Shown one piece after another: positions 1-14,955 of a stretch of DNA of 14,955 nt. Where the stretch lies: contig CBDHEC010000044.1 in assembly GCA_965261975.1 (NCBI GenBank), positions 1 through 14,955 on the forward strand. Direction: 5' to 3'. Position numbers and translations under genes: made by a program. A model generated the notes under the pieces. That model saw nothing but the letters and a program-made list of their open reading frames with translations. It was not told the origin of the DNA and searched no databases. How positions within the stretch are numbered: position 1 is the first letter of the stretch; each line of letters opens with the position of its first letter. Origin of the DNA: Alphaproteobacteria bacterium (lineage in GTDB: Bacteria; Pseudomonadota; Alphaproteobacteria; UBA6615).

Positions 1-1138
1 GACCGAGCTTGGGATCGACGATCTTAACCTTTCGGCGCCGATCGGCGGATTGCCCCTGGCCACCTTGCGCATCATCGATCTTGCAAGAGCGCTGGCAATC
101 GAACCCGATGTCCTGCTTCTAGATGAGATAACGGCGGCATTGCCGGCGGATCTCGTCGAGCGTGTCCTTAAGGTTGTTCGCCAGAAGGCGGATGACGGGA
201 TGGGCGTCATCTACGTATCCCACCGTTTCAGCGAGATATCGGAATTGTGCGATCGTGCCTTCGTTTTGCGCGACGGACGAACCATGGGCGACCTAAGCAT
301 CGAACCGGGCGTGGAGGAGCGCGCGGTGGAACTCATGCTGGGCCAAAAATTGGACCTCGGCGAGCGCAAGAATTTTGACGCGCGACGTGACCATGCCGGC
401 GTCCCGCGTGTACGGGTCAGGGGGTTGGCGATCGCCCCGAAGGTCGCGGATCTGACGCTGGACATTCACGAGGGCGAAGTGCTCGGGGTGGTGGCGCTTG
501 AAGGGCAGGGGCAAGACGAGTTGTTCGATTGCCTGGCCGGGTTCACATCGCCCACCGCCGGCGCAATCGAAATCAATGGTAGACCGACCAGTTTCAAACA
601 TCCGGCCGATGCTATTGCCGCCGGTCTGACCTTCGTGCCCGGCGATCGCGCCGATGCACTTTTGGCGCAACGGTCAGTGAGAGAGAACATCGCGCTGCCA
701 TTCTCCGCGCGCATCCGCTCCTGGGGCACCCTTAAGCTGCGCCACGAGCGCAACAGAGTCGGCTACGCGATCGAAAAGCTGCAGATCGATACGCGCGCGC
801 AAGGAGAGGTGCAGAGACTTTCCGGCGGCAACCAGCAGAAGGTGACGATAGGCCGGTGGCTCGCTACCAACGTTCAGACGCTTCTGCTCTTCGATCCCAC
901 CCGTGGCATCGATATCCGGACAAAGCGGCAGATCTATCCGCTGGTGCGCGAACTCGCCGACGACGGGGCCTCTGTCCTTTATTACACGTCGGAGCTTGAG
1001 GAAGTTCCCCTGGTTTGCGATCGCGTTGTCGTCATTTTCAAAGGCCGCGTCGTCAATATCATTGATGCCGAAGATGCCGACGAGCAAACGCTCATGCGGG
1101 CCGCCTACGGGCTGGTGGCCGAGAAGGGTGCAGCGTGA
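1..1138 (+). CDS. Sugar ABC transporter ATP-binding protein, CUT2 (RbsA/MglA-like) with tandem NBDs; 5'-truncated by window edge
   Basis: Frame is open from position 2 (TELGIDDLNLSAPIGGLPLA...). First NBD has Walker B LLLDE and H-loop YVSH. Second NBD has degenerate Walker A (VALEGQGQDE), LSGGNQQKV signature, LLLFDPTRGID and TSELEE. The stop overlaps the next GTG (GTGA). Confidence 0.95.
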   Translation, partial: TELGIDDLNLSAPIGGLPLATLRIIDLARALAIEPDVLLLDEITAALPADLVERVLKVVRQKADDGMGVIYVSHRFSEISELCDRAFVLRDGRTMGDLSIEPGVEERAVELMLGQKLDLGERKNFDARRDHAGVPRVRVRGLAIAPKVADLTLDIHEGEVLGVVALEGQGQDELFDCLAGFTSPTAGAIEINGRPTSFKHPADAIAAGLTFVPGDRADALLAQRSVRENIALPFSARIRSWGTLKLRHERNRVGYAIEKLQIDTRAQGEVQRLSGGNQQKVTIGRWLATNVQTLLLFDPTRGIDIRTKRQIYPLVRELADDGASVLYYTSELEEVPLVCDRVVVIFKGRVVNIIDAEDADEQTLMRAAYGLVAEKGAA

Positions 1139-2076
1139 GCGAGATCGTTCGAAAGAACGCCTGGGTCATTGGGCTTGCCGCGCTCTTGTTGTTGCTTCTC
1201 GCCATCACGAGGGTGATCCAGCCGACATTCGGAGCCTCGGGGCTGGAGAGCATTGCCCGGGCCGGGCTGCCCTTCGCGTTCGCCACGGCGGGAATGGCTG
1301 TGGTGGTGATTGTAGGCGGCATCGACCTGTCGGTCGCATCGATGATGGCGATTTGCGCCGTCACCGCTGCGGTCCTGATGGAGCATATGGCAGGACCTCC
1401 CGCCTTTCTCATCGTCTTGGCCGTCGGATTGGGCATGGGACTGATCAATGGCGGCCTAATCGTCCTGACCCGGGTGCCCGACATCGTGGTTACGCTGGCG
1501 ATGCTCTTTGTCTGGGAAGGTGTGGCCCTCTTAATTCTGGAAACGCCGGGCGGCTCGGCGGCGGACTGGCTTCAGCAGAGCATTCGCCGCAACTTCCTCG
1601 TTCCGGGCTTGCCCAATGCGCTTGTTATCCTCGTTATCGTTATTGCCCTTGTTTGGCTTCCAATTCGGCGATCCAAGCTGGGGCTTTCCATCTACGCGGT
1701 CGGGTCCGACGAGCGTGCCGCATTCCGATCGGGGGTGGCCGTCGGGCGAACCAAGATAGCCGCTTACGGAATTTGCGGTCTGTTCTGTGCGTTCGGAGGA
1801 TTGAGCCTTGCGGCGTTGACGGGGATCGGTGAGCCGGTCCCAGGTCCTTACTTGCTGGCATCCGTTGCTGCGGTCGTGCTTGGTGGCGTCGTATTAGGTG
1901 GCGGGCGCGGCGGATTGCTGGGGCCGATCATCGCCGTGTTCATTTTGCGGATCGTTCGAACGATCTTGACGCTGCTGGCTGTAGATCCAAACGTCACCAC
2001 CATCATTGAAGGCACCATCATGGTCGGTGTCGTGATGTTGGGCACTGCCCTTACCTTGCGGTCCGCACGACGATGA
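1135..2076 (+). CDS. Sugar ABC transporter permease (RbsC/BPD_transp_2 family)
   Basis: 313 aa, highly hydrophobic. GGIDLSV, IVVTLAM, GLSIYAVGSDERAAFRSGV and AAVVLGG motifs. Coupled to both neighbours by 4-nt overlaps. Confidence 0.95.
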   Translation: MSEIVRKNAWVIGLAALLLLLLAITRVIQPTFGASGLESIARAGLPFAFATAGMAVVVIVGGIDLSVASMMAICAVTAAVLMEHMAGPPAFLIVLAVGLGMGLINGGLIVLTRVPDIVVTLAMLFVWEGVALLILETPGGSAADWLQQSIRRNFLVPGLPNALVILVIVIALVWLPIRRSKLGLSIYAVGSDERAAFRSGVAVGRTKIAAYGICGLFCAFGGLSLAALTGIGEPVPGPYLLASVAAVVLGGVVLGGGRGGLLGPIIAVFILRIVRTILTLLAVDPNVTTIIEGTIMVGVVMLGTALTLRSARR

Positions 2077-3080
2077 ACATTGATGAAGCCGATCCGCCGA
2101 TGGTCCGCTTCGGGCGTTTTCTGCGCGGTAATCCGGTCATTCCGCTGCTCGTGTTCCTCTTTTTGTTGATTGCCGTGTTGGAGCTTATGCGGCCGGGAAT
2201 TGTCACGCCGATCCGGGCCGGGCGGGACGGCCTCATATCTGCGTTCTGGGTCGGAAATCTCATCAAGTTCGCGATCCCCCTGGCGATGCTGGCGGCTTGC
2301 CAAGTCCTGACGATGTTGACTGCGGGAATCGACTTGTCCGCCGGGGTCGTCGCGACGGTTGCAGCGTTTGTCTGCGCGACCCTTAGTTCGGTCTGGGGTG
2401 TCGCTCCGGCCGTCATAATCGCTCTATCCATTGGATTGCTCATCGGGGTGGTCAATGGCGTGGGCGTGGGGCTCGTTCGGGTTCATCCCCTTATCATGAC
2501 GCTCGGTACCGGGCTGATTGCCACGGGATGTCTTCAGGTCTACCAGCGGCTTTTCATCAATGCGGGCTCAGAGATCCCGGAATTTCTCTCCTGGCTGGGT
2601 ACTGGCCGAACCCTCTCGATGCCAAATGGGCTCTATTTGTTCATCCCGTTCGCGATCTTCATCTTCTGGCTGATGCGTTTCACCGGGCTTGGCAGGTTGC
2701 TGTTCGCGCTCGGCTCGAACGAACATGCAGCCAAGCTTTCAGGCGTGAGAGCGTGGCAAGTTTATTTGGCGCTATATGCCCTTTCCGGACTGATCGCCGC
2801 GCTGGCCGGTCTCCTGTATCTAGGCATGATCCGCCAAACTTCGTTGAGCCTTGCCAACCCCCTGCTGTTGCCCTCCGTCGCCGCCGCGGTTATTGGCGGC
2901 ACGTCGATATTCGGTGGGCGAGGCAGCTTTGCCGGCGCAATTGTCGGGGCGCTGATCATCCGCGTCCTAGACACGATGTTGACGCTACTTCAGATGCCGG
3001 AAGGCGCCAGGACCGCGCTGTTCGGTGCGATCATTCTCGCCGTCGCTGCCATGTATGTAAGGATCATTGGGACCAGATAG
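2073..3080 (+). CDS. Second sugar ABC transporter permease (RbsC/BPD_transp_2 family)
   Basis: 335 aa. AGIDLS, PLIMTLG, GRLLFALGSNEHAAKLSGV and AAAVIGGTSIFGGRGS motifs. ATGA overlap with the upstream permease. Confidence 0.95.
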   Translation: MNIDEADPPMVRFGRFLRGNPVIPLLVFLFLLIAVLELMRPGIVTPIRAGRDGLISAFWVGNLIKFAIPLAMLAACQVLTMLTAGIDLSAGVVATVAAFVCATLSSVWGVAPAVIIALSIGLLIGVVNGVGVGLVRVHPLIMTLGTGLIATGCLQVYQRLFINAGSEIPEFLSWLGTGRTLSMPNGLYLFIPFAIFIFWLMRFTGLGRLLFALGSNEHAAKLSGVRAWQVYLALYALSGLIAALAGLLYLGMIRQTSLSLANPLLLPSVAAAVIGGTSIFGGRGSFAGAIVGALIIRVLDTMLTLLQMPEGARTALFGAIILAVAAMYVRIIGTR

Positions 3081-3151
3081 AGGGTTCGGGCATTGTCGCG
3101 CCTGGAGGGCCAGCCAGGCGATTGCCGCTGCGTGACAGGAAGTAACGACGT

Positions 3152-4237
3152 ATGGATGTGATACTGAAACCAGACCCCGATATACGGGCGAAGTCGTTCA
3201 AGATCGGGTGTATCGGCGCCGGCATGATTATGGCCGAATGCCATCTGGCGGCATATGCCGAGGCGGGGTTTCCGGTGGCGGCCATAGCCTCGCGCACGCA
3301 GTCAAGGGCGGAGGAGGTGGCAACGCGCTGGTCGATCCCCAAGGTGCATCCCGATCCGGCGGCGCTGATTGCCGATCGCGACGTAGAAATCCTCGACATC
3401 GCATATCCGCCGGACCAGCAACCGGCGCTGATCCGCGCGGCCCTGAAGGCACCGCACATCAAGGCAATCCTGGCGCAAAAGCCGCTCGCGCTGAGCCATG
3501 AAGAAGCGCGTGCCCTTCGGGACGAGGCGGCCGCAGCCGGAAAGCCTTTGTCGGTCAATCAGAACATGCGTTTCGACCAGTCGATGCAGGTGCTCAAGCA
3601 ACTGCTGGACGAGGGCGTTCTGGGCGAGCCGGTGTTCGCGCAGATCGATATGCATGCGATCCCGCACTGGCAGGGTTTTCTGGAGGACTATGACCGGTTG
3701 ACCCTGTCGAATATGAGCGTGCATCACCTTGACGTGCTGAGGTTCCTGTTCGGTGATCCCGACGAGGTCACGAGCCTGGCGCGCACCGACCCGCGTACGG
3801 CATTCGATCACTCCGACGGTATCGTCGTGACCACCTTGCGCTTTCCGTCGGGCTTGATGGCGCTGTCGCTGGAAGATGTCTGGTCGGGCCCGCGTGAGGA
3901 GGGCTATCCGGACGACCAGCATATAGGTTGGCGCGTGGAAGGCACGAAGGGCGTTGCCAAGGGCACCATTGGCTGGCCCACTGGCGTTGCCTCAACCCTT
4001 AGCTATGCGAGCACATCGCACACAGCAGGCAAGTGGGTCACGCCGCACTGGGAAACGATGTGGTTTCCCCATGCCTTCATCGGCGTAATGGAACAGTTAC
4101 AATTCGCGCTGCAGACGGGTTCGGCTCCCGTACTGAATGTCGCCGACAATGTCCGGACCATGGCGCTGGTCGAGGCCGCCTACGCCTCGATTGCCGAGGG
4201 ACGCACGGTGAACTTCAAGGATTTCTTGGAAAATTGA
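3152..4237 (+). CDS. Gfo/Idh/MocA-family NAD(P)-dependent oxidoreductase (sugar dehydrogenase)
   Basis: 361 aa. N-terminal Rossmann IGCIGAGMI, AQKP (variant of the EKP motif), VNQNMRF, HHLD catalytic region, C-terminal EAAYAS...GRTV. Confidence 0.93.
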   Translation: MDVILKPDPDIRAKSFKIGCIGAGMIMAECHLAAYAEAGFPVAAIASRTQSRAEEVATRWSIPKVHPDPAALIADRDVEILDIAYPPDQQPALIRAALKAPHIKAILAQKPLALSHEEARALRDEAAAAGKPLSVNQNMRFDQSMQVLKQLLDEGVLGEPVFAQIDMHAIPHWQGFLEDYDRLTLSNMSVHHLDVLRFLFGDPDEVTSLARTDPRTAFDHSDGIVVTTLRFPSGLMALSLEDVWSGPREEGYPDDQHIGWRVEGTKGVAKGTIGWPTGVASTLSYASTSHTAGKWVTPHWETMWFPHAFIGVMEQLQFALQTGSAPVLNVADNVRTMALVEAAYASIAEGRTVNFKDFLEN

Positions 4238-4256
4238 AGCTAGGGAAGATAAGGCC

Positions 4257-5171
4257 ATGATGCAGACCGGAATCTTTACGGGGTATTTTCCCTATTCGCT
4301 GGGCGAGACCGCGAAGGTCATACGCGGGCACGGTTTCAATACCGTGCAACTCGACATGGCCTTCAAGGACATGGATTTGTCCCTCGGGCAGATCACCAAG
4401 GAGAAATGCTTCAAGATCCGCGAGACCTTCCGCGACCATAACCTGCCCATCTGCTGCATTTCGGGCTACACCAACATCGTGCATCCGGACGCCGGCGAGC
4501 GGGCCAAACGCAATGGCCTGCTGAAGGAGATCATCGCGCATGCGCAGTATCTGGGCAGCCCTTACGTGATCTCAGAAACCGGCACCTTCAACACGGAAAG
4601 TGATTGGGTCCACCACCCGAAGAATAAGACCAAGGAAGGGTGGGATGATTGCCGTACGGTGATCGCCGATCTCGCGCAGCATGCCCACGACCACGGCGCG
4701 ATCTTCCTACTTGAGACCTACGTCAACAATGTCGTGGGTTCCGTGGAGGAGACCCTGCGCATGTTCGCCGAGGTCGACCATCCGGGCCTGGGCCTGCTCA
4801 TGGACCCGACCAACTATTTCGAAGCCCACAACATCGACAGGATGGATGAGACCCTGAACTATGTCTTCGATGCGCTGTCCGACAAGATTTGCATCGGCCA
4901 TGCCAAGGACGTGATGCGCTCCGGCGACGACAAGTCCGAAAAACACAGCGATATCGGAAATGAGGACGCTTCCGAAGGCCTTACATTCCGGGGCGTGGGC
5001 GAGATCGAGCTGCCGGCCCCGGGCCTGGGTGAGCTGAACTACGATCTCTACTTCCAGCGGCTGGCCAAGAAGCATCCCAACATCCCAATGATCATCGAAC
5101 ATCTGGATGAGTCGGATGTGCCGAGGGCCAAAGCCTTCATCGACGGCAAGCTTCGCGCGAACGGTCTGTAA
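4257..5171 (+). CDS. Sugar-phosphate isomerase/epimerase family protein (AP endonuclease 2 / xylose-isomerase-like TIM barrel)
   Basis: 304 aa. Metal-binding residues in the canonical order: LLET (E), LMDPTN (D), GHAKD (H), IIEH (E). Also PGLGELNY. Confidence 0.9.
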   Translation: MMQTGIFTGYFPYSLGETAKVIRGHGFNTVQLDMAFKDMDLSLGQITKEKCFKIRETFRDHNLPICCISGYTNIVHPDAGERAKRNGLLKEIIAHAQYLGSPYVISETGTFNTESDWVHHPKNKTKEGWDDCRTVIADLAQHAHDHGAIFLLETYVNNVVGSVEETLRMFAEVDHPGLGLLMDPTNYFEAHNIDRMDETLNYVFDALSDKICIGHAKDVMRSGDDKSEKHSDIGNEDASEGLTFRGVGEIELPAPGLGELNYDLYFQRLAKKHPNIPMIIEHLDESDVPRAKAFIDGKLRANGL

Positions 5172-5271
5172 GATCGGATATAACGGTCGTCGCAACGGCT
5201 TGCGTCTGCCTGCCTGGCGCCAAATCGGAGAGACGATTCCGGCCACGTAAGGGTCGGCACATGGAGAGGTT

Positions 5272-6450
5272 ATGGTCAAACTCTACGGAAAAGAGATGAC
5301 ACGTGCCGAAGTCGAAGCTGCAAGCGGCTCGCTAGGCCATGCGGCCGGCGTGCGGCTCATGACCTTGGATGACGGGGTGGAGCGCGGCATCCGGCTGCTG
5401 GAGTTTCGTTCGGGTACCGGCTTGCGGTTCACGGTTCTGGTCGACCGTGCCATGGACATCGCCGATTGCGATTATCGCGGGCAGGGCATCGGCTGGCACT
5501 CGCCGGCGGGTTTCCGTCATCCCGGCCTGCACGATTACGAAGGCGAGGGTGGGCTCGCTTGGCTGCGCTCCTTCTCCGGCCTGCTGGTGACCTGCGGCCT
5601 TGACCACACCCTGTTTATGTATGATGCACCGGCGGACAATTATGTCTACACGCCAAGGCAGAGCGTGTCGCATTCCATCCACGGGAGGATCGCGACCATT
5701 CCAGCACGCCTGACGGGGTACGGAGAGCGCTGGGACGGCGATGCCTGCACCTTATGGGCGGAAGGTGTGATCACTCAGGGCACCGTCTTCGGCGAACATC
5801 TCGAATTGCATCGGCGCATCGAGATCGAAGTTGGCAGCAATGACATCCGCCTCGCCGACCGCGTCGTCAATCGCGGCTTTTACCGGACGCCGCACATGCT
5901 CTGTTACCACATCAATGTCGGCCATCCGGTTTTGGAGGAAGGCGCTCGGTACCTCGCGCCAATTTCGGACGTCGTTTGGGCCGCCCATGCGGACAGCTAT
6001 CGGGATCAGGGGGTGGGGTACCAGACCTTGTCCGGTCCTCAGTTGGATTTTCACGAGCAGGTCTGGCAGCACGAAATGGCGTCAGACGAAAAGGGCGAGG
6101 TGCCGGTCGCACTGGTAAACGACCGGCTTGGTCTCGGCTTGATGGTGGTCACCTGCAAAGACCAGTTCCCCTGCCAATACGAATGGCAGAATCTGCAGGC
6201 CGGCCAGTACGCGCTGGGCATCGAACCCTCCACGAACCATGTCCTTGGGCACGGTGCCGCGCGCGAGCGCGGGGAACTGATCTGGCTCACCCACGGGCAG
6301 GACAAGACCTATGACGCGGTCTTTTCGGTGCTGACCAACCAGCAGGCCATCTCGGCTGCGGAGGCAAGGATTGCCGGCATGGCGCAACAGCCGGAAGAAG
6401 ATTATCCCCAACCGTCTGGAGAATTCAGGCCGATCGAAGGGCGGGCATGA
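5272..6450 (+). CDS. Aldose 1-epimerase/galactose-mutarotase-like protein (DUF4432 type)
   Basis: 392 aa. GGAGAGG RBS. Motifs GLRFTVLVDRAMDI, GLLVTCGLD, SIHGRI, CYHINVG and LGIEP (the His/His/Glu pattern of the mutarotase fold). Confidence 0.88.
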   Translation: MVKLYGKEMTRAEVEAASGSLGHAAGVRLMTLDDGVERGIRLLEFRSGTGLRFTVLVDRAMDIADCDYRGQGIGWHSPAGFRHPGLHDYEGEGGLAWLRSFSGLLVTCGLDHTLFMYDAPADNYVYTPRQSVSHSIHGRIATIPARLTGYGERWDGDACTLWAEGVITQGTVFGEHLELHRRIEIEVGSNDIRLADRVVNRGFYRTPHMLCYHINVGHPVLEEGARYLAPISDVVWAAHADSYRDQGVGYQTLSGPQLDFHEQVWQHEMASDEKGEVPVALVNDRLGLGLMVVTCKDQFPCQYEWQNLQAGQYALGIEPSTNHVLGHGAARERGELIWLTHGQDKTYDAVFSVLTNQQAISAAEARIAGMAQQPEEDYPQPSGEFRPIEGRA

Positions 6451-6461
6451 CAGAGACGATT
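6447..6461 (+). pseudogene. 5' stub of a translationally coupled gene (MTETI...) interrupted by the IS6 element
   Basis: ATGA overlap with the stop of the upstream CDS and GAAGG upstream. The IS left IR starts exactly at codon 6. No recognisable continuation after the right IR. Confidence 0.5.
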
Positions 6462-7266
6462 GGCATTGTCACACGAACGGGGCTGGGTCGCAGAACTCCC
6501 CGAGAGCCAGTCGGAAGTCATCCAGCCACGGCAGCTGCCCTCCAGTTTTTCATGGCTTCAGCTCTGTGGATACGCAATGTCCGGCGGGTGATCAAATGTC
6601 GCTGACAGTTGAAGATGTTGTACACGGCGGAATGCATGGAGACGAACAGCTGAGCCGAGCCGTGCGATTTGAACCGCTGCATCTTTCGTTCACGCCGGCG
6701 GTCCGGTTGATGCGAGACTTCAGCCCGGTTGTTCTTCCTCAGACCCCGCTGGTGGCGCGCTAAAAGGCCTAAATCGCTGAACGCTGCTCCATAGGAGCGC
6801 AGGTTGTCGGTCGTGATCATGCAGGGCGCAAAGCCCTGCCTCTTCAGCGGAGAGCGCATCAACTTGCCTGCCGCCACCCGGTACCGCCGACGCCGGACGA
6901 GGATCTCAAGCACCTCGCCTTCGTCGTCTCCGGCTCGCCAAAGATAGAGTTACTTTCCGGAGATCTGGATGACCATCTCGTCGAGATGCCCGGGCGAACG
7001 TGGCTTGTGCCAAAGCCGTCGCAATCGGCGTGCAATCTGGGGGCCGAATTTCGACACCCGCCGGCAAACCGTGTCATAGCTGACGTCAACACTACGCTCG
7101 GCCAACAGATCCTCGACATCGCGATAGCTCAACCTGAACCGAAGATACAGCCAAACGGCATGCTAGATGATGATAGGAGGGACCTGATGGTGCGTGTAGG
7201 ACGTGGAAGGCATCGGCCAAGTCTATCAGCCATGTCGCCATTTGGCGCGGTTCCTGTGACAATGTC
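6462..7266 (-). mobile_element. IS6-family insertion sequence, 805 bp, degenerate
   Basis: Terminal IRs: GGCATTGTCACACGAACGGGGC (6462-6483) versus the reverse complement of 7245-7266, GACATTGTCACAGGAACCGCGC (18/22 identical). They enclose an IS6-type transposase. Size is typical of IS6. The flanks (agacgatt / atcggcac) are not a direct repeat. Confidence 0.9.
6518..7213 (-). pseudogene. IS6-family DDE transposase pseudogene (about 231 codons, two in-frame stops)
   Basis: One frame from ATG 7213 reads MPSTSYTHHQVPPIII*HAVWLYLRFRLSYRDVEDLLAER...HLDEMVIQISGK*LYLWRA.DDEGEVL...ITTDNLRSY...NNRAEVSHQP.RRRERKMQRFKS. Stops are TAG at 7165-7163 and TAA at 6952-6950. Confidence 0.93.
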
Positions 7267-7399
7267 ATCGGCACCCTTCTCGAGACATTGCCGTATTCCC
7301 ACAGAGTGGCTTCGATTTGGACACTCGGGAGGTCGCTCATGGGATCGTCATTTTGTCCCTCGACACGAATCGGCTTTGAAATGGGCGTGAGATTAGTCA

Positions 7400-7426
7400 G
7401 TATACAATAGTTTTCCTATTGTCGAC
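7400..7426. promoter_or_regulatory. Putative GntR-family operator (dyad) upstream of the hydrolase/Dpp operon
   Basis: GTATACAATAG-ttttc-CTATTGTCGAC has a perfect 7-bp core IR (ACAATAG/CTATTGT) and 9/11 overall. Each arm holds a GT-N2-AC box. It lies in an AT-rich patch about 50 bp upstream of ATG 7474 and overlaps a TACAAT -10-like hexamer. Confidence 0.5.
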
Positions 7427-7473
7427 TTAATGGTCCTCGGCTCGGAATTGCTCACATTCGCGGGGAGAGGCAA

Positions 7474-8170
7474 ATGGTACACGATCCATATTGGGATCTG
7501 GTCGCTGAGCCGGACGCGGTCGATGTAGATCCGTCCCGGACAGCACTTTTGATCGTCGACATGAACAAGCTGTGCGCGCATCCGGACGGTTGGATGGGGC
7601 GGCTGGGCCGTGATCAAGGCAAACCGGACCATCTCAAGGAGCGTTTCGACTTCATCGAGGAAATTACGCCACGCTTGCGCAAACTCCTCTTGCATTGCCG
7701 CGGGCATGGAATCGAGCCATTCCACATCCGCGTGAACTTTCGTACGGTGTCGAACCGCGATAGCGCCGCCGACCTGCGGGCACGTCGAGACCAAGGCATG
7801 CCATACTTGCCGCTCGACGCAGATTTCTTGGAGGCGGTCGCACCCGAGGGCGATGAAATCGTCATCGATAAGACCAGCGTGAGTACGTTCAACTCGACTT
7901 CCATCGACCAGATCCTGCGCAACATGGGTCGCGACCATTTGTGGGTCTGCGGAGTGGTCACTGAGGGTTGCGTTGAGCTAACCGCCCGCGATGCGCGCGA
8001 CCGGAGTTTCCACGTGACGCTCGTCACCGATGCCTGCGCCTCGTCACGCCGTGCTGCGCATGACGATGCTGTTCAACGCATGACCGATGGCAATGTCATT
8101 CGGGGGCCGCACCGTGGACGAATTAATCGCCATGACACCGTCCAAGGAATTCGAACTGGCTGAATCTTAA
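7474..8170 (+). CDS. Isochorismatase-like cysteine hydrolase (amidohydrolase), paralog A; apparent +1 frameshift near the 3' end (as written the ORF ends at 8163)
   Basis: GGGGAGAGG RBS. Asp-Lys-Cys triad at IVD29, IDK133 and TEGC166. Removing one G from the G5 run at 8102-8106 gives the tail IRGRTVDELIAMTPSKEFELAES* (TAA 8168-8170), which fits paralog B (IRVRKAAEIENLI) better. Confidence 0.9.
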
Positions 8171-8199
8171 CGACACCATCAATCCGAGGGGGACTTTCG

Positions 8200-9746
8200 A
8201 TGAGACTATTGACTACCGGAACTATGGTTGCGGCAAGCGTGCTCGCGGCCATCTCGGCTTCACCTCTCTTCGCGCAGGAGACACCGCAAAGGGGCGGGAC
8301 GCTCGTTGTTGCAAGACCGGCCGATGTGAACCTATGGGATCCAAAATACACCAACGACAACGCGTCTCTTTGGGCCCAGCATCAAGTCTATGCCAACCTG
8401 ATCCAGAACTCGGCAGACGGCTTGGAGTTGCGGCCTTCACTGGCCGAATCCTGGGAGATCTCTGAAGACTCGACCACCTACACCTTCACGCTCCGCGAGA
8501 ATGCGTTCTTCTGCAACGGGGACCCGATCACCGCGCATGACGTGAATTCTCCTTTGATCGGGCCATGGAGGACGACAGCAACGTCAGCTGGCAGTTCCCT
8601 GCAAACCCTCAGGTGAGCGTGATCGACGACCACACCGTCCAGATCGAGATCGACCGGCCAAACGTCGCCTTCGTGAGCTATCTCACGCTCTGGGGCAGCC
8701 ATATCTTGTCGAGGGACTACGCCGAGGAGGTTGGCCCGGAGGGACTGGCTGCCGCGCCAATGGGATCGGGGGCATTCTGCCTCGAGCGCTGGGACAGGGG
8801 GCAGGTCGCAGTGCTGACGCCCAACCCGGGATACTGGGAGCCCGACATGCCCTATGTCGATCGGGTCGAAATGCGCGTCGTGCAGGACGATAACGCGCGC
8901 ATCCTGCAACTGCGGACCGGAGAGGTCGACGTGGCGCTGCAGGTTCCGTTCAGTCAGGCAAGCTCTCTTGACGGTGTGCCGGGCGTCGATGCGACGATGG
9001 TGACGATTTATGGCACGGCCGCGGTCGTGCCCAATGTCAGCCGGGTCCCGGAACTTGCGGATGTCAGGGTGCGCCAGGCAATCTCCTACGCTGTCGACCG
9101 CGAGGCGATGATCGACGCGATCCTGCAGGGTAATGGTGAGCCGGCGGAGTCGCCATTCTACGGCCCCGGGATCCTTTACCACACCGATGAGTTCGCCACC
9201 GGCTACGATCTGGAGAGGGCGAGGGCGTTGATGGCAGAATCATCGGCCCCCGATGGTTTCGAGGTCGATCTGGTAATCCCGTCGGGTGACGAGATGGCCC
9301 AGCAGACAGCAGTCATCCTGAACGACCAGCTGGCCCAAATCGGCATTCAGGTCAATGTCGTGCCGGTCGAGGCCGGCACCTGGTGGCAGCTGTGGTCCAG
9401 CGGCGAGTTCGAAATGGTCTACAAGCTTGGGACCAACGACGTGATTGACCCGGCCATGAACATCCCCTTCGACTTCTGGCCGAGGGAGATCGGTGGGTCG
9501 GACTCGGCCTTCTCGGGCTACGTTAACGACCGAATTGTCGAGATCAGCATCGAGGCCGAGGGGGCGCAAGACCCTGACCTTCGTCGGGAACTCTATACCG
9601 AACTTCAACAGATCGCGATGGACGAGGTGCCGCAACTCTACCTGTTCCATCCGACGACCATCTACGGCACGCGCGACAACGTCCAAAACTTCGCCGTCTT
9701 CCCGACAAAGCTGCACCGCTTCTGGGAGGTCTGGATGACCGAATAG
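8200..9746 (+). pseudogene. Dpp/Opp-type (SBP family 5) ABC substrate-binding protein, about 515 aa, split by a 1-nt deletion (frameshift or sequencing error)
   Basis: Signal peptide MRLLTTGTMVAASVLAAISASPLFA|Q, then RGGTLVVA, PSLAESWEISED.TTYTFTLR...F.NGDPITAHDV. Adding one base at about 8546 restores DV(K)FSFDRAMEDD, joining ORF 8565-9746 (PMGSGAF, DVRVRQAISYAVDRE). Confidence 0.9.
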
Positions 9747-9758
9747 AGCGACCCTGCG

Positions 9759-10700
9759 GTGGCGCTTCTCTCATTCCTGCGCAGAAGGCTTATCCAGATT
9801 GTACCCGTCTTGTTCGGCATACTTCTGGTGGTTTTCATGGTCGTCCGGCTGGTGCCGGGCGACCCTGCCAGGATGATGCTCGGAGTCTACGCGACCGACG
9901 AACGACTTGACGCTCTCCGGGCCCAACTGGGTCTCGACCAGCCGATCTGGGCACAGTTCGGCAACTTCCTCTGGGACGTGATGCAGGGCGACCTGGGCAT
10001 TTCGCTCGTTTATCGCCGCCCCGTCCTCGAAGTCATCGGAGAGCGGCTTGCGCCCACGATCTCACTCATCAGCTATTCTGTCTTCCTGTCGGTCATCGTC
10101 TGCGTTCCACTCGCCATGCTCGCGGCTACCCGGCGCGGACAGCGAACTGATCAGGCCATTCGTGCCGGTGCGACGCTCACGCTGGCAATGCCGAGTTTCT
10201 GGCTGGGGCTGAACCTCCTGATCGTCTTCGCTGTCGTCTGGCCCGTTTTCCCCGTGGCGGGCTTCGGCGATACCGTTTTCGATCGTCTTTGGCACCTTTT
10301 CCTTCCGGCACTTACGATCACTCTCTCGCTGGCGCCGATCCTGATCCGCACTCTGCGCGCCTCCGTCATCGAGGCGATGTCGGCGCCCCACGTCGAGTTC
10401 GCCCGCACCAAGGGGTTGCCCGCACGCAAGCTTATGCGGCGCCACGTACTGCGCAATGGTCTGATGGCGACAGTGACGATCCTGGGCGTCAACATCGGTT
10501 GGCTTCTGGGCGGCACGGTCGTGATCGAACAGGTTTTCTCAATTCCCGGCATCGGAAACCTGATCGTGAGTTCGGTGACCGCGCGAGACTATCCGATGAT
10601 TCAGGGGATAGCCCTGGTCTTCGGGCTGCTCGTCATTTGCATCAATCTTGCGACCGATATTGTCTATGCTCTTCTGGACCCACGGGTGAGCTATGACTGA
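9759..10700 (+). CDS. Peptide/nickel ABC transporter permease (DppB/OppB-like)
   Basis: 313 aa. LVPGDPA, LGLDQP, HLFLPA, EAA-like FARTKGL...RHVLRN, C-terminal YALLDPRV. Confidence 0.95.
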   Translation: MALLSFLRRRLIQIVPVLFGILLVVFMVVRLVPGDPARMMLGVYATDERLDALRAQLGLDQPIWAQFGNFLWDVMQGDLGISLVYRRPVLEVIGERLAPTISLISYSVFLSVIVCVPLAMLAATRRGQRTDQAIRAGATLTLAMPSFWLGLNLLIVFAVVWPVFPVAGFGDTVFDRLWHLFLPALTITLSLAPILIRTLRASVIEAMSAPHVEFARTKGLPARKLMRRHVLRNGLMATVTILGVNIGWLLGGTVVIEQVFSIPGIGNLIVSSVTARDYPMIQGIALVFGLLVICINLATDIVYALLDPRVSYD

Positions 10701-11577
10701 CGAGCACGCCGCTCGCACCTTGCCCAGCCGACGCATTCCATCGCTGCCTGGACGCGCGCGTCTTGTAGCGGTACTCGGGCACCGTACGGCCGCCACGATC
10801 GGTGCCGGGCTGATAACGCTCATCGTACTTGCAAGTGTGATGGCGCCTTGGTTATCGCCTTACGATCCAATCGCACAGGATCTGCGCAACGCGCTCAAGC
10901 CGCCAAGCTGGGAGCACCTGTTCGGCACCGACAATTTCGGGCGCGATATCTTTACCCGTGTTCTCTATGCCGCACAGATAGACCTGCGCATCGCGTTCCT
11001 GTGTGTCTTCTTTCCTTGGGTCCTTGGCACGTTGCTGGGCTGCGTTGCAGGCTACTCGGGCGGATTTGTCGACACCGTGATCATGCGGACGGTCGATACC
11101 TTCACCGCTTTCCCTTTTCTCGTCATGGCGATCGGTGTGATCGCCGTTCTTGGCCCCGGCGTTACGTCGATGTATATCGCGCTCACGCTCGCGGGATGGA
11201 GCATGTACGCCCGTATCGTGCGCGCGGAAGTGCTCGTCGCCAAGCGAAGCGAATATGTCCTGGCGGCCCGTGCGCTAGGCTTTTCGCACACGCGGATCAT
11301 GCTGCGGCACCTGTTGCCCAACGTCATCACGCCAACGATCATTTTTGCCATGACCGACATCGTCCTGGTGATCCTATCGACCACGACACTCGCCTTTCTG
11401 GGCCTCGGACTTCCGCCCCCGACGCCGACTTGGGGCACCATGATTGCCGAGGGAAAGAGCTTCATCTTCACCGCGTGGTGGATGGTCACCTTGCCGGGCC
11501 TGGCCATTGTCCTTGTAGGCATTTCGCTAAGCCTTTTCGGCGATGGCGTGGCTGACTGGCTCCGAGAGAGGGAATAA
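10693..11577 (+). CDS. Peptide/nickel ABC transporter permease (DppC/OppC-like)
   Basis: 294 aa. HLFGTDNFGRDIFTRV, EYVLAARALG...RHLLPN, LAFLGLG, WGTMI motifs. Confidence 0.95.
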   Translation: MTDEHAARTLPSRRIPSLPGRARLVAVLGHRTAATIGAGLITLIVLASVMAPWLSPYDPIAQDLRNALKPPSWEHLFGTDNFGRDIFTRVLYAAQIDLRIAFLCVFFPWVLGTLLGCVAGYSGGFVDTVIMRTVDTFTAFPFLVMAIGVIAVLGPGVTSMYIALTLAGWSMYARIVRAEVLVAKRSEYVLAARALGFSHTRIMLRHLLPNVITPTIIFAMTDIVLVILSTTTLAFLGLGLPPPTPTWGTMIAEGKSFIFTAWWMVTLPGLAIVLVGISLSLFGDGVADWLRERE

Positions 11578-12596
11578 GCGTCATCGCCCTGCTCGAGGTC
11601 CGAAATCTGTCGACTGATATCCCGACCCGCCGCGGCGTGCTGCACGCTGTCGACGATGTGAGCTTTTCGATCCTGCCGGGCGAATGCCTCGGCATCGTGG
11701 GCGAGAGCGGCTCGGGCAAGAGTGTCACGTGCCGCTCCGTCCTTGGCCTGCTGGCCCCGCCCGTGCACATCAGGGGACAGGCGTTGTTCGACGGCGCCGA
11801 CTTGATAGCGTTGGGCGAGGAGGAGCGACGGCGAATTCGTGGCCACGACATCGCGATGATCGTACAGGACGCCGTGTCCGCGCTTAACCCCGTTTTGCGA
11901 GTCGGCAGACAGATTGCCGAAGGGTTGCTCGAACATGGCATCGTCCGGTCCCGTCGTGCCGCGCAGAACCGCGCGGTGGAATTGATGCGAAAGGTGGGCA
12001 TCCCCTCGCCAGAGGATCGCGTCAACGACTATCCGCACCAGTTCTCGGGAGGCATGTGCCAGCGCGTCGTGATCGCAACCGCGCTGGCCTGCGCGCCGCG
12101 GCTCTTGATCGCCGATGAGCCGACGACGGCGCTTGACGTTACGATTCAGGATCAAATCCTGAAGCTTCTAGTGCAGTTGCGCCAAGAGCTGGACCTCGCT
12201 GTGATCCTCGTTACCCACGACATGGGCGTCGTGGCGGAGACCTGCCAGCGCATCGCGGTTATGTACGCGGGCCAGATCGTCGAGACCGCGACGCCGACCG
12301 AGCTGTTTGAGAACCCTAGACATCCCTACAGTGCCGCGCTGCTCGATTGCGTGCCGACTTTGGACGGTCCGCACCCTGAACGTTTGCGACCGATCGAGGG
12401 ACTGCCGCCAGATCTCGTCGCGCCGCCCGAAGGCTGCCGGTTTCATCCGCGCTGCGCCATGGCGACTGATGCTTGCCGTGCCGGACCGGTGCCCCTGACG
12501 GAAATCGGTCCGGGCCGCTCCACCCGCTGTCTGCGCCATGCAGATATGATCCCAGGCGCTGGAGATGCAAGAAACCTGGCCGAGAAACGAGCCTGA
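11574..12596 (+). CDS. Peptide ABC transporter ATP-binding protein (DppD/OppD-like); start codon non-canonical or mutated (first canonical start is GTG 11637)
   Basis: Walker [28 protein letters not shown]-loop VTHD, HPY and GCRFHPRC C-terminal domain. The conserved N-terminal ALLEVRNLS lies in frame upstream of 11637, after ATA 11574 and ATC 11583. Confidence 0.93.
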
Positions 12597-13603
12597 TGAC
12601 CCCCTTGATAGAGATACGCGGACTTTGCAAAACCTATCCGGTCCAAGGTGGATTCCTCGACGGTATTCTGCCCGGCCGTCGAAGCCTGCTAACCGCGCTG
12701 GAGAGCATTGATCTTGACCTGGCACCAGGGGAAATCTTCAGCCTCGTTGGGGAGTCGGGGTCGGGCAAGACAACACTTGGCCGAACGCTTCTGCGGCTCG
12801 TGGAGCCGACCTCCGGAGAGATCCGTTTCAGAGGCGAGAACCTTCTCTCGATGGGTCCCGGTCGGATGCGTGCCATCCGCCGCGATCTGCAGATGGTGTT
12901 TCAGGATCCGTGGTCCTCGCTGAACCCGCGCCTGACCGTGGGCAAGATGCTCAGCGAGGTCCTTCTGGTGCACGGCATCGCCAAGGGCGCTGCCGCCCAC
13001 GCCCGCGTGGCCGAGCTTCTGGATCTCGTGGGACTGCCCGTAGAGGCCGCGAACCGCTATCCACGGCACTTCAGCGGGGGTCAGCGCCAACGCATCGGCA
13101 TTGCGCGTGCACTGGCCGTCGAGCCTGTGTTCATCGTGGCTGACGAGCCGGTTTCGGCCGTCGATGTCTCGGTGCAGGCACAGATCATGAATCTACTGCT
13201 CGACCTGCGCGACCGGCTTGGCCTGACGCTGCTGGTAATCGCCCACGACCTGAGCGTTGTGCGTTATGTCAGCGATCGGGTCGCGGTCATGTATCTTGGC
13301 CGGATCGTTGAAACCGCCCCTGCTGAAGATTTTTTTTCCAATCCGCGCCATCCGTACACGCGCGGTTTGATGGCTGCCGCGCCGCGCACGGGCCCGAAGA
13401 CCAGGCGTGGTTCCGCCGCGATCACCGGCGAGCCTCCGTCCCCGCTTGCGCCGCCGCTAGGTTGCCCGTTCAACCCGCGATGCCGCCATGCCGATGCAGG
13501 CTGCCGCGAGGCCATGCCCGAGCTGGAGGACCTCGGCGGCGGCCACCTCGTTCGGTGTTTCAAACATGACACTCTTGGCCACCAGGCAGTGGCCGAAGCC
13601 TGA
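12596..13603 (+). CDS. Peptide ABC transporter ATP-binding protein (DppF/OppF-like), 335 aa
   Basis: TGATG coupling gives the start at 12596 ([14 protein letters not shown]). [37 protein letters not shown] and GCPFNPRC motifs. Confidence 0.95.
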
Positions 13604-13623
13604 ATGTCACAGCGGAGATTTCA

Positions 13624-14328
13624 ATGGCCCACGATCCGTACTACGACCTCGTTCCACCCCCGCCGGAACCCGCTTTTGTTCCATCCAAAACGGCGCTTCT
13701 GACGATCGACCTTCAGTATCTCGACGCCCACCCCGATGGCTGGATGGGTAGGCTCTGCCGGGACCAAGGAAAACCCGATCATCTAAACGAACGCTGGGAG
13801 TTCATCGAAGAGATCTTGCCGACTGTAACCCTGCTGCAAAACGCCTGCCGCTCGGGCGGTGTGGAACTGATTCATATTCGCGTCAAATATCTCACGGCCG
13901 ACTGCCGCGATGGGCAACGCTCCCTTCAGCAGGAGACGAAGGCACGCTGGGCAGACGCGCGGGATGACGAATTCCTGCCGGAGGTTGCGCCGCACGGCGA
14001 CGAATTGGTGATCGACAAGACAAGTGCGGGGACCTTCAACTCGACTCCCATCGACCAGATCTTGCGCAACATGGGTATTGACCGGCTGCTTGTCTGCGGC
14101 ATCGTAACCGAAGGGTGCGTTGAACTCACGGCCCGTGACGCGGCCGACCGCGGCTACTACGTGACGCTCGTCGAGGATGCCTGCGCCTCATCAACACGCG
14201 TCGCCCACGATGATGCGCTGCAACGGATGTCGGACGGGGCCCTAATCCGTGTTCGAAAAGCGGCGGAGATCGAAAACCTGATTCAGTCCGCGGCCGTGGC
14301 AAGCGAACCGGAAGCCGTCCCGGGATGA
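13624..14328 (+). CDS. Isochorismatase-like cysteine hydrolase (amidohydrolase), paralog B
   Basis: 234 aa. GGAGA RBS. Triad at TID29, IDK132 and TEGC165. About 60% identical to 7474-8170 by hand alignment. Confidence 0.93.
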   Translation: MAHDPYYDLVPPPPEPAFVPSKTALLTIDLQYLDAHPDGWMGRLCRDQGKPDHLNERWEFIEEILPTVTLLQNACRSGGVELIHIRVKYLTADCRDGQRSLQQETKARWADARDDEFLPEVAPHGDELVIDKTSAGTFNSTPIDQILRNMGIDRLLVCGIVTEGCVELTARDAADRGYYVTLVEDACASSTRVAHDDALQRMSDGALIRVRKAAEIENLIQSAAVASEPEAVPG

Positions 14329-14488: not shown

Positions 14489-14599
14489 CTCGCTGATGAT
14501 GACCCTTGCGCCGTCGTTCGACATGCGCTGTGCGATGGCCGCGCCGATGCCACCAATGGCACCCGCACCGCAGATCAGGACCGGCTCACGTATCGCCAA
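14489..14599 (-). pseudogene. Remnant of a Rossmann-fold oxidoreductase gene (ketopantoate-reductase-like and/or SDR-like N-terminus only)
   Basis: (I)REPVLICGAGAIGGIGAAIAQRMSNDGARVIISE overlaps the creatininase stop. After about 35 codons nothing is recognisable, and only about 160 bp remain before the convergent hydrolase B stop. Confidence 0.65.
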
Positions 14600-14955
14600 G
14601 ACCCGGCCACGGGCCCTCCAGCGCTGCGCGTGTTTCCCGCACACCCGTCTCCCAAATCGAAAACATTTCAGCGTCCGGTCGCTGCCAGCGCCCGCCGAAG
14701 GACCCGTCCCCCAGCAATTCGCGCACCTGCGTCGGGGGAGATGCCTTCATCAGGTCCATGTCGATAACCGGTTTTTCGCCTTGGGGTGCTGTGGCATGGG
14801 ACAGCCGCGTCCAGGGGAAGTTCTCCAGCCAGTTTGCATGGGACGCCGTGGGGTCAATTGACTGTGCCTTGGCCCATGTCTGGGGCGCGTTCCACCAGTT
14901 GTGGAACTTGATCGAGAGGTCGGCGTGCTCTGCCATCAAGTCCTGCGCCAGTGCA
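14586..14955 (-). CDS. Creatininase-family protein (creatinine amidohydrolase / formamide hydrolase-like), C-terminal part; truncated by window edge
   Basis: Frame is open to the window end (ALAQDLMAEH...). FHNWW, metal-ligand motif SHA.W.E (equivalent of HAGE.E), and LGDGSFGG near the C-terminus, which I recognise from alphaproteobacterial creatininase-family proteins. Confidence 0.75.
   Translation of the reverse strand, partial: ALAQDLMAEHADLSIKFHNWWNAPQTWAKAQSIDPTASHANWLENFPWTRLSHATAPQGEKPVIDMDLMKASPPTQVRELLGDGSFGGRWQRPDAEMFSIWETGVRETRAALEGPWPGLGDT

Follow-up and report, generated by a model that had tools for sequence, protein, structure and literature searches.

An importer and cysteine amidohydrolase cassette of an apparently unstudied subfamily, with a damaged and probably acquired copy in an alphaproteobacterial contig

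The window analysed here is an entire contig (C44) of 14,955 bases, from a 3.03-Mb alphaproteobacterial genome of 59 contigs. Between positions 7474 and 14328 it carries seven + strand genes, in which a Dpp/Opp-type ATP-binding cassette (ABC) importer is flanked by two isochorismatase-like cysteine hydrolases, HydA and HydB (Table 1). This cassette joins an importer to a cysteine amidohydrolase of a subfamily that appears to be widespread yet unstudied, and its closest analogues are the triuret/biuret operon and ddpXABCDF of Escherichia coli. We read it as an ‘import and unblock’ cassette, which would take in a blocked compound of roughly dipeptide size and remove the blocking group; the copy in the window is most likely acquired, decaying and no longer a working importer. 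On balance we lean towards this reading as a whole. The sequence-only reading of the same DNA had described seven co-directional, tightly spaced genes, and they lie where and in the order it claimed (hydA, solute-binding protein, permB, permC, atpD, atpF, hydB), with spacings, read directly from the sequence, that range from a 36-base gap to an 8-base overlap. Its remark that there is no peptidase holds for all seven.

The association of hydrolase and importer is conserved. Three scans of contigs, one genome per species, gave 80 related loci (L numbers below), on which the window proteins were mapped by tblastn; the scan with hydA as query yielded 12 loci, one of them new and informative (L037). 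A gene counted as hydB-type if its identity was 63% or more, if it resembled hydB more than hydA and if 1 kb or more of sequence preceded it; L012, L021 and L048, with too little upstream sequence, are not in the count. Such a gene stands directly 3′ of a Dpp ATPase gene in 24 of 26 loci, the ATPase being 57–95% identical to that of the window; the exceptions are L053, a rearranged locus, and L004, in which the gene before it codes for a second hydrolase. The hydA-type gene lies directly 5′ of the orthologous binding-protein gene in 11 of 14 loci (exceptions L004, L014 and L017). The link is found in loci of Alphaproteobacteria, Chloroflexota and Trueperaceae, and the HydB orthologue of L001 is 85% identical. 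The earlier proposal would have fallen had homologues in other genomes lacked this transporter, and on these counts it is not refuted.

Some loci depart from the standard layout. L053 (Caldilineaceae, 768-6118) has three isochorismatase-like genes on one contig; two distant ones (38–40% identity) on the opposite strand adjoin the orthologous binding-protein gene, and the hydB-type gene lies behind an aminotransferase gene. In the Hyphomicrobiales loci L015 and L024, two paralogous binding-protein genes flank hydA, in the order binding protein, hydA, binding protein, permB, permC.

Both hydrolases exceed the PF00857 gathering score of 27 bits (Table 1), and they are 61% identical to each other. 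The Asp-Lys-Cys triad that had been noticed in the letters is present in both; D29, K132 and C165 (HydB numbering) are invariant in an alignment of 48 sequences and align with the triad of TrtA. The shared motifs quoted alongside it are real as well, and most are conserved at 90% or more in this alignment, the positions that reach at least that level being H3, D4, P5, Y6, A35, H36, G39, M41-L44, T133, S134 and N139-T141. The AlphaFold model of HydB has a predicted local distance difference test (pLDDT) value of 88.5 and a Rossmann-like alpha/beta fold. Against the PDB it gave 140 matches at E ≤ 0.001, and the matches listed are family members with template-modelling (TM) scores of 0.64–0.76, normalised to query length. 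The top structural matches are TrtA (29% identity, TM 0.74–0.79), BiuH (24–26% identity) and RutB (22% identity).

The subfamily is distinct and uncharacterised, as the sequence-only reading had thought possible. No NCBIfam equivalog cut-off is approached: the best match, the BiuH model NF050097, scores 68.0 and 76.6 bits for the two hydrolases against a cut-off of 370, the RutB model TIGR03614 scores 60.7 and 54.1 against 377.95, and the PncA model NF008623 scores 29.2 and 39.8 against 174. Neither protein matches a curated enzyme family, and the nearest solved enzymes are 22–29% identical. A database search returned 687 homologues, and the 120 listed, 65–95% identical to HydB and spread over several phyla, bear generic names, either ‘cysteine hydrolase’ or ‘nicotinamidase-related amidase’; a protein atlas likewise gave generic ‘cysteine hydrolase’ clusters only. 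In the open-access literature we found no account of the subfamily, nor of an isochorismatase-like hydrolase with a Dpp importer.

The enzymes closest in both sequence and structure are TrtA and BiuH (Herbaspirillum sp. BH-1, Rhizobium leguminosarum and Rhodococcus sp. Mel; PDB 6xix, 6azo and 6xjm). They share with HydA and HydB the fold, the triad and a V-T-E-x-C segment, which is kept in HydB as V161-T162-E-G-C165; in TrtA the V157-T158 pair of this segment forms a cis-peptide bond before the nucleophile. Passages of the TrtA paper (PMC7948467) describe the co-occurrence of TrtA and BiuH paralogues in one locus as the rule, at ~50% identity, the twin paralogues acting in sequence. The window might hold a copy of the known triuret/biuret system: an ABC importer adjoins a pair of paralogous isochorismatase-like hydrolases, the top matches in sequence and fold are TrtA and BiuH, and the best NCBIfam match is BiuH. 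The same passages (PMC7948467) give F29, E72 and K132 as substrate-contact residues of TrtA, together with Q202 supplied by the partner subunit. In an HMMER alignment (chain numbering is the paper's plus 3) F29, E72 and K132 are replaced by A35, V87 and A135 in HydB; the comparison covers these three, the alignment ending short of Q202. The window hydrolases also carry a 9-residue insertion after the catalytic Asp relative to TrtA and BiuH. With scores so far under the cut-offs, the contact residues replaced and this insertion present, HydA and HydB are not biuret or triuret hydrolases. The window further has no allophanate hydrolase, and its transporter is of the Dpp type, a different class. 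A copy of the triuret/biuret system is thus scarcely credible, and membership tests (the NF050097 cut-off and the contact residues) contradict the enzymatic identity.

The second hydrolase is a feature of some cassettes and not of others. The complete arrangement of hydA, importer and hydB is found on a single contig in L001, L002, L003, L006 and L055, and split across two contigs of one metagenome-assembled genome (MAG) in five further cases (L005/L018, L015/L057, L024/L058, L016/L052 and L037/L048). In phylogenies the two genes fall into separate old clades. The hydA clade has support 99/99 in an IQ-TREE analysis of 29 rows; in a FastTree analysis of 60 rows, which left out L013, L019-L022, L027, L029 and 22 near-duplicate Actinomycetota loci, it comprises 15 rows with support 99. 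The FastTree subtrees of hydA and hydB mirror each other, with the same genome groupings, and the pair has therefore been inherited or transferred as a unit. In the Rhodobacterales loci L006, L018 and L037, hydA also lies directly 3′ of the ATPase genes of another Dpp system, 48–54% identical, which looks like two importer and hydrolase units in tandem.

Cassettes in which hydB is the only hydrolase gene beside the importer are also common (eight Chloroflexota loci, L056 and L059). The sequence-only reading had supposed that the imported compound, or pair of compounds, would carry two hydrolysable C-N bonds; given the many genomes with importer and hydB only, two such bonds are not required. 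HydB would then be the core enzyme of the conserved cassette, accompanying the importer in at least three phyla, and HydA an added paralogue, apparently of long standing, that some Alphaproteobacteria and a single Trueperaceae genome have inherited along with the cassette. The segment that follows the catalytic Asp differs between the two, IDLQYLDAHP in HydB and VDMQNMCAHP-like in HydA. The TrtA paper (PMC7948467) describes the segment as closing over the substrate in that enzyme, and the difference therefore suggests different specificities. HydA, differing from HydB at this place, probably acts on a second substrate related to the first or catalyses a further step.

The importer comprises every component of a Dpp/Opp system: a family-5 binding protein with a signal-peptide-like segment at its N-terminus, two BPD_transp_1 permeases (one with OppC_N) and two oligo_HPY ATPases. 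PermB, PermC, AtpF and HydB are full length when compared with orthologues. No component reaches an NCBIfam equivalog cut-off for DppA, GsiB, NikA, OppA or CntA. The permeases come nearest to nickel-type models, Opp2B for PermB (312 bits, cut-off 350) and Opp2C for PermC (269 bits, cut-off 300), with the NikB/NikC models also near, and the N-terminal piece of the window binding protein has NikA and CntA as its best NCBIfam matches. These likenesses would suit an importer of a metal chelate, of the nickel or opine-metal type, with the hydrolases as functionally unrelated passengers. The intact 521-residue binding-protein orthologue of L001 tells otherwise, its nearest solved protein being AapF (7kz8, E 9.5e-70) as against NikA at ~1e-31; the strict adjacency of hydrolase and transporter is kept across phyla; and no urease, hydrogenase or metallophore genes adjoin the cassette in the loci examined. 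We regard metal-chelate import as highly improbable.

AapF belongs to the plant-responsive PipR system (PDB 7kz8/7kz9) and, although the nearest solved binding protein, is distant. According to a review, PipR-system import of HEHEAA, an ethanolamine-derived compound, depends on the transporter protein whose structure was solved (PMC10134790). The PipR system differs from the cassette in having aminopeptidase genes and a LuxR solo and in lacking an isochorismatase-like hydrolase. We take HEHEAA to be an acetamide and the PipR transporter protein to be the one that the PDB calls AapF. Among the matches listed for the open-access literature, the name AapF gave unrelated uses only, and HEHEAA together with substrate-binding protein gave nothing.

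Table 1. Genes of the importer and hydrolase cassette, and an adjoining transposase remnant, by position in the window
Feature	Position	Strand	Description
hydA	7474-8163	+	isochorismatase-like cysteine hydrolase, 229 aa as read; PF00857 109.1 bits; triad D29/K133/C166
family-5 solute-binding protein gene	8200-9746	+	two frames, 8200-8616 and 8565-9746; PF00496 on both
permB	9759-10700	+	DppB/NikB-type permease, 313 aa, intact; PF00528 and PF19300 (BPD_transp_1_N)
permC	10693-11577	+	DppC/NikC-type permease, 294 aa, intact; PF00528 and PF12911 (OppC_N)
atpD	11574-12596	+	OppD/DppD-type ATPase; ABC_tran and oligo_HPY; first canonical start GTG at 11637
atpF	12596-13603	+	OppF/DppF-type ATPase, 335 aa; ABC_tran and oligo_HPY; ATG overlaps atpD stop (TGATG)
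hydB	13624-14328	+	isochorismatase-like cysteine hydrolase, 234 aa, intact; PF00857 116.7 bits; triad D29/K132/C165
decayed IS6-family transposase remnant	6518-7250 (upper bound approximate)	-	PF13610 and NF033587 on 6518-6913

A comparable operon logic is known from E. coli, where the gene for a cytoplasmic hydrolase heads a five-gene Dpp-type importer in ddpXABCDF. DdpX is a zinc D-Ala-D-Ala dipeptidase and not a cysteine hydrolase, and the ddp operon has no second hydrolase.

Several lines of evidence bear on the substrate. Ureides are the substrates of all the characterised enzymes nearest to HydA and HydB in sequence and fold, and isochorismatase-like amidohydrolases have repeatedly proved to be key enzymes for small, nitrogen-rich molecules, among them biuret, triuret, guanylurea, ureidoacrylate and carbamoylsarcosine. 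Two of the 80 related loci have a hydantoinase context, which the window has not: in L017 a hydA-type gene follows genes for a dihydropyrimidinase/D-hydantoinase (670 bits, cut-off 647), HyuA and HyuB, and in L072 an isochorismatase-like hydrolase gene stands between HyuA-HyuB, which it follows, and the genes of a Dpp-type binding protein and permeases. Ring-opening enzymes of the dihydropyrimidinase and Hyu types are expected to yield an N-carbamoyl amino acid. This placement of an isochorismatase-like hydrolase after a hydantoin ring-opening enzyme recalls hydantoinase-carbamoylase clusters and the route of N-carbamoylsarcosine amidase, an enzyme of creatinine or N-methylhydantoin breakdown; similarity to the N-carbamoylsarcosine amidases themselves is weak (1nba, E 8.9e-9; 26st, E 4.3e-6). 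RutB shares fold and triad with HydA and HydB at the low identity given above, and RidA-family and amidase genes occur near the Actinomycetota homologues; the window has no rutA-like gene.

Dipeptidase-like genes (M20, M24 and Xaa-Pro-dipeptidase-like) lie near homologues in Chloroflexota, L001 and L024. The Chloroflexota neighbours include an M20 dipeptidase-like protein, an M24 protein with Creatinase_N and an Xaa-Pro-dipeptidase-related amidohydrolase, and in the same neighbourhood a class I/II aminotransferase, a 2-hydroxyacid dehydrogenase and a GntR/FCD regulator. L001 has an M20 gene and an amidase gene upstream of the cassette. An M24 gene lies directly 3′ of the hydrolase gene in 31 of 36 Actinomycetota loci, with epimerase, Zn-dehydrogenase, RidA and amidase genes near. 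The suggestion that the cassette serves mainly to release nitrogen, carbon-pathway genes being absent from the operon, is weakened by these neighbourhoods, in which homologues of Chloroflexota and Actinomycetota have genes for aminotransferase, 2-hydroxyacid dehydrogenase, M20, M24 and amidohydrolase proteins around them.

As a separate observation, the Actinomycetota loci (L060-L096, for example L063, 2558-17279), many of them sponge-associated according to database records, share a conserved neighbourhood around a hydrolase 49–55% identical. Besides two amidohydrolases, the genes there code for a 2-hydroxyacid dehydrogenase, an aminotransferase, an epimerase, an M24 protein, a Zn-dehydrogenase, RidA and an amidase, and also for a protein of ~460-500 residues without a Pfam or NCBIfam match.

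Taken together, kinship to ureide hydrolases, the hydantoinase contexts, the dipeptidase neighbours and kinship of the binding protein to AapF favour a compound about the size of a dipeptide that bears a carbamoyl or amide group, and this is our best guess at the substrate. The binding protein and importer would take in this compound, and the hydrolases, which we infer to be cytoplasmic, would cut its terminal carbamoyl (ureido) or amide C-N bond by way of a Cys thioester intermediate. The cut would set free ammonia, and CO2 as well in the case of a carbamoyl; ordinary peptidases or aminotransferases could then finish the unblocked product.

The dipeptidase neighbours also suit a different chemistry, in which the hydrolases are lactamases or cyclic-amide hydrolases that open an imported cyclic dipeptide or opine-type lactam, and the linear product passes to prolidase-type or M20 dipeptidases. 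The transporter is of the dipeptide type, the M24 protein with Creatinase_N, the Xaa-Pro-dipeptidase-like amidohydrolase and the M20 dipeptidase-like genes recur beside homologues, and gamma-lactamase activity is reported for isochorismatase-like enzymes (PMC5353710, PMC12553813). Open-chain ureides are nevertheless the substrates of the nearest characterised relatives in sequence and fold, and minimal cassettes occur without a dipeptidase. We know, moreover, of no natural cyclic-dipeptide hydrolase in the isochorismatase-like family, and ring opening seems to us unlikely.

Four findings weigh against the import-and-unblock reading. Replacement of the three residues that hold the ureide in TrtA and BiuH means that any ureide would be bound differently than in those enzymes. 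The neighbours vary by phylum and represent several chemistries, namely hydantoinase, dipeptidases, amidase with RidA, and aminotransferase with 2-hydroxyacid dehydrogenase. None of the 36 Actinomycetota loci with a 49–55% identical hydrolase has an adjacent Dpp system, and the transporter link therefore holds for the closer clades only. Finally, none of the 120 listed homologues bears a specific name, and both reaction type and substrate class are read from kinship and context. The points that concern the window copy are taken up with its lesions and setting below.

A bolder and rather doubtful proposal may be put forward tentatively. The hydrolases would mark out a catabolic route, as yet uncharacterised, that breaks down some common constituent of the dissolved organic nitrogen in aquatic and sponge habitats, a blocked dipeptide-like molecule that could be a ureide, an amide or a cyclic amide. 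HydA and HydB would attack two of its C-N bonds one after the other, in the manner of TrtA and BiuH, and the larger aminotransferase, 2-hydroxyacid dehydrogenase, M24 and amidohydrolase neighbourhoods of Chloroflexota and sponge-associated Acidimicrobiia would supply the rest of the pathway. The substrate, if found, would name a nutrient of Rhodobacterales, Chloroflexota, Trueperaceae and related sponge-associated Actinomycetota, and would correct many generic ‘nicotinamidase-related amidase’ annotations. The window copy itself adds little to the importance of the subfamily, being a damaged and probably acquired instance.

This copy carries three lesions. The sequence-only reading had noted the frameshift in the binding-protein gene, and the lesions in hydA and atpD are additional. 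In hydA the G run at 8102-8106 has gained one base and the last ~19 codons are replaced, as DNA alignment with L001 and L023, the C-termini and the +1 frame show, and the C-terminal segment that orthologues have as ...VIRG|RTVDELIAMTP... is lost. In the binding-protein gene, alignment with L001 and L002 reveals a 1-base deletion in the A run at 8545-8546. In atpD, positions 11574-11576 read ATA where L019, 95–96% identical, has an ATG that overlaps the permC stop (ATGA); upstream the frame stays open as far as 11556, a start at the GTG would drop ~20 N-terminal residues, and the NCBIfam profile match starts at about position 19-21. Contigs of related populations are intact at the two indel sites: a ~95% identical relative in sequencing run X1 is without the extra G, and X1, X2 and X3 carry an extra A at 8544.

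Whether these lesions are real turns on the quality of the assembly. The cassette could be intact and functional, with the frameshifts arising as homopolymer errors at low coverage and atpD starting at a non-ATG codon. Both indels do lie in short homopolymer runs, the sole run that matches the window exactly (X19) has a word depth of ~2.7 and no contig covering 8553-8683, and hydB, both permease genes and atpF are full length. These facts count against decay, and X19 is probably the source data of the assembly and hence not independent; with the depth so low, assembly error keeps some probability. Three lesions nevertheless fall inside ~3.5 kb, and a homopolymer error does not explain the atpD start, where one base is substituted. 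The neighbouring IS6 gene is interrupted by two in-frame stops, and L023 offers a second, related cassette that is broken up. Elsewhere in the genome the rpoB and rpoC frames are open (~8.9 kb), coding density is 0.90 and mean open reading frame length is 323 residues, which are normal values. The assembly being clean overall, real decay is rated above assembly error; we consider it quite likely, and an intact cassette possible but clearly the less probable explanation. In L023 itself (10001-12410, a Rhodobacteraceae MAG) the damage spares hydA but has left the binding-protein gene in three parts and permB incomplete, and an unrelated 670-residue open reading frame comes next.

The setting of the cassette is consistent with acquisition. 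No cassette homologue at E ≤ 1e-40 was found in any of 11 same-genus genomes, and one was found among 45 genomes of the family. The first 6.45 kb of the contig likewise have no DNA match in the 11 same-genus genomes. The IS6 transposase remnant, on the − strand between a sugar-type cluster and hydA in the stretch 6450-7470, has lost its N-terminus and carries its two stops in frame, as judged by read-through translation; blastn found no other copy in the 3.03-Mb genome. Contig C44 is a mild outlier in tetranucleotide composition (rank 11 of 178 chunks) and could be mis-binned; the contig is either an acquired island or a mis-binned one. We describe the window cassette as damaged and probably acquired.

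Three minor features of the window may be added. A scan for promoters and terminators gave nothing above chance (one promoter-like site, 2.0 expected; two terminator-like sites, 5.7 expected). On the − strand at 14586-14954, an open-ended, protein-like open reading frame of 122 residues, without a Pfam match, runs off the contig. At the other end, positions 2-6450 hold the sugar-type cluster, unrelated to the cassette and apparently intact in all its genes, which encode an ABC ATPase, two BPD_transp_2 permeases of the sugar type, a GFO/IDH/MocA oxidoreductase, a xylose-isomerase-like TIM barrel and a DUF4432 protein.

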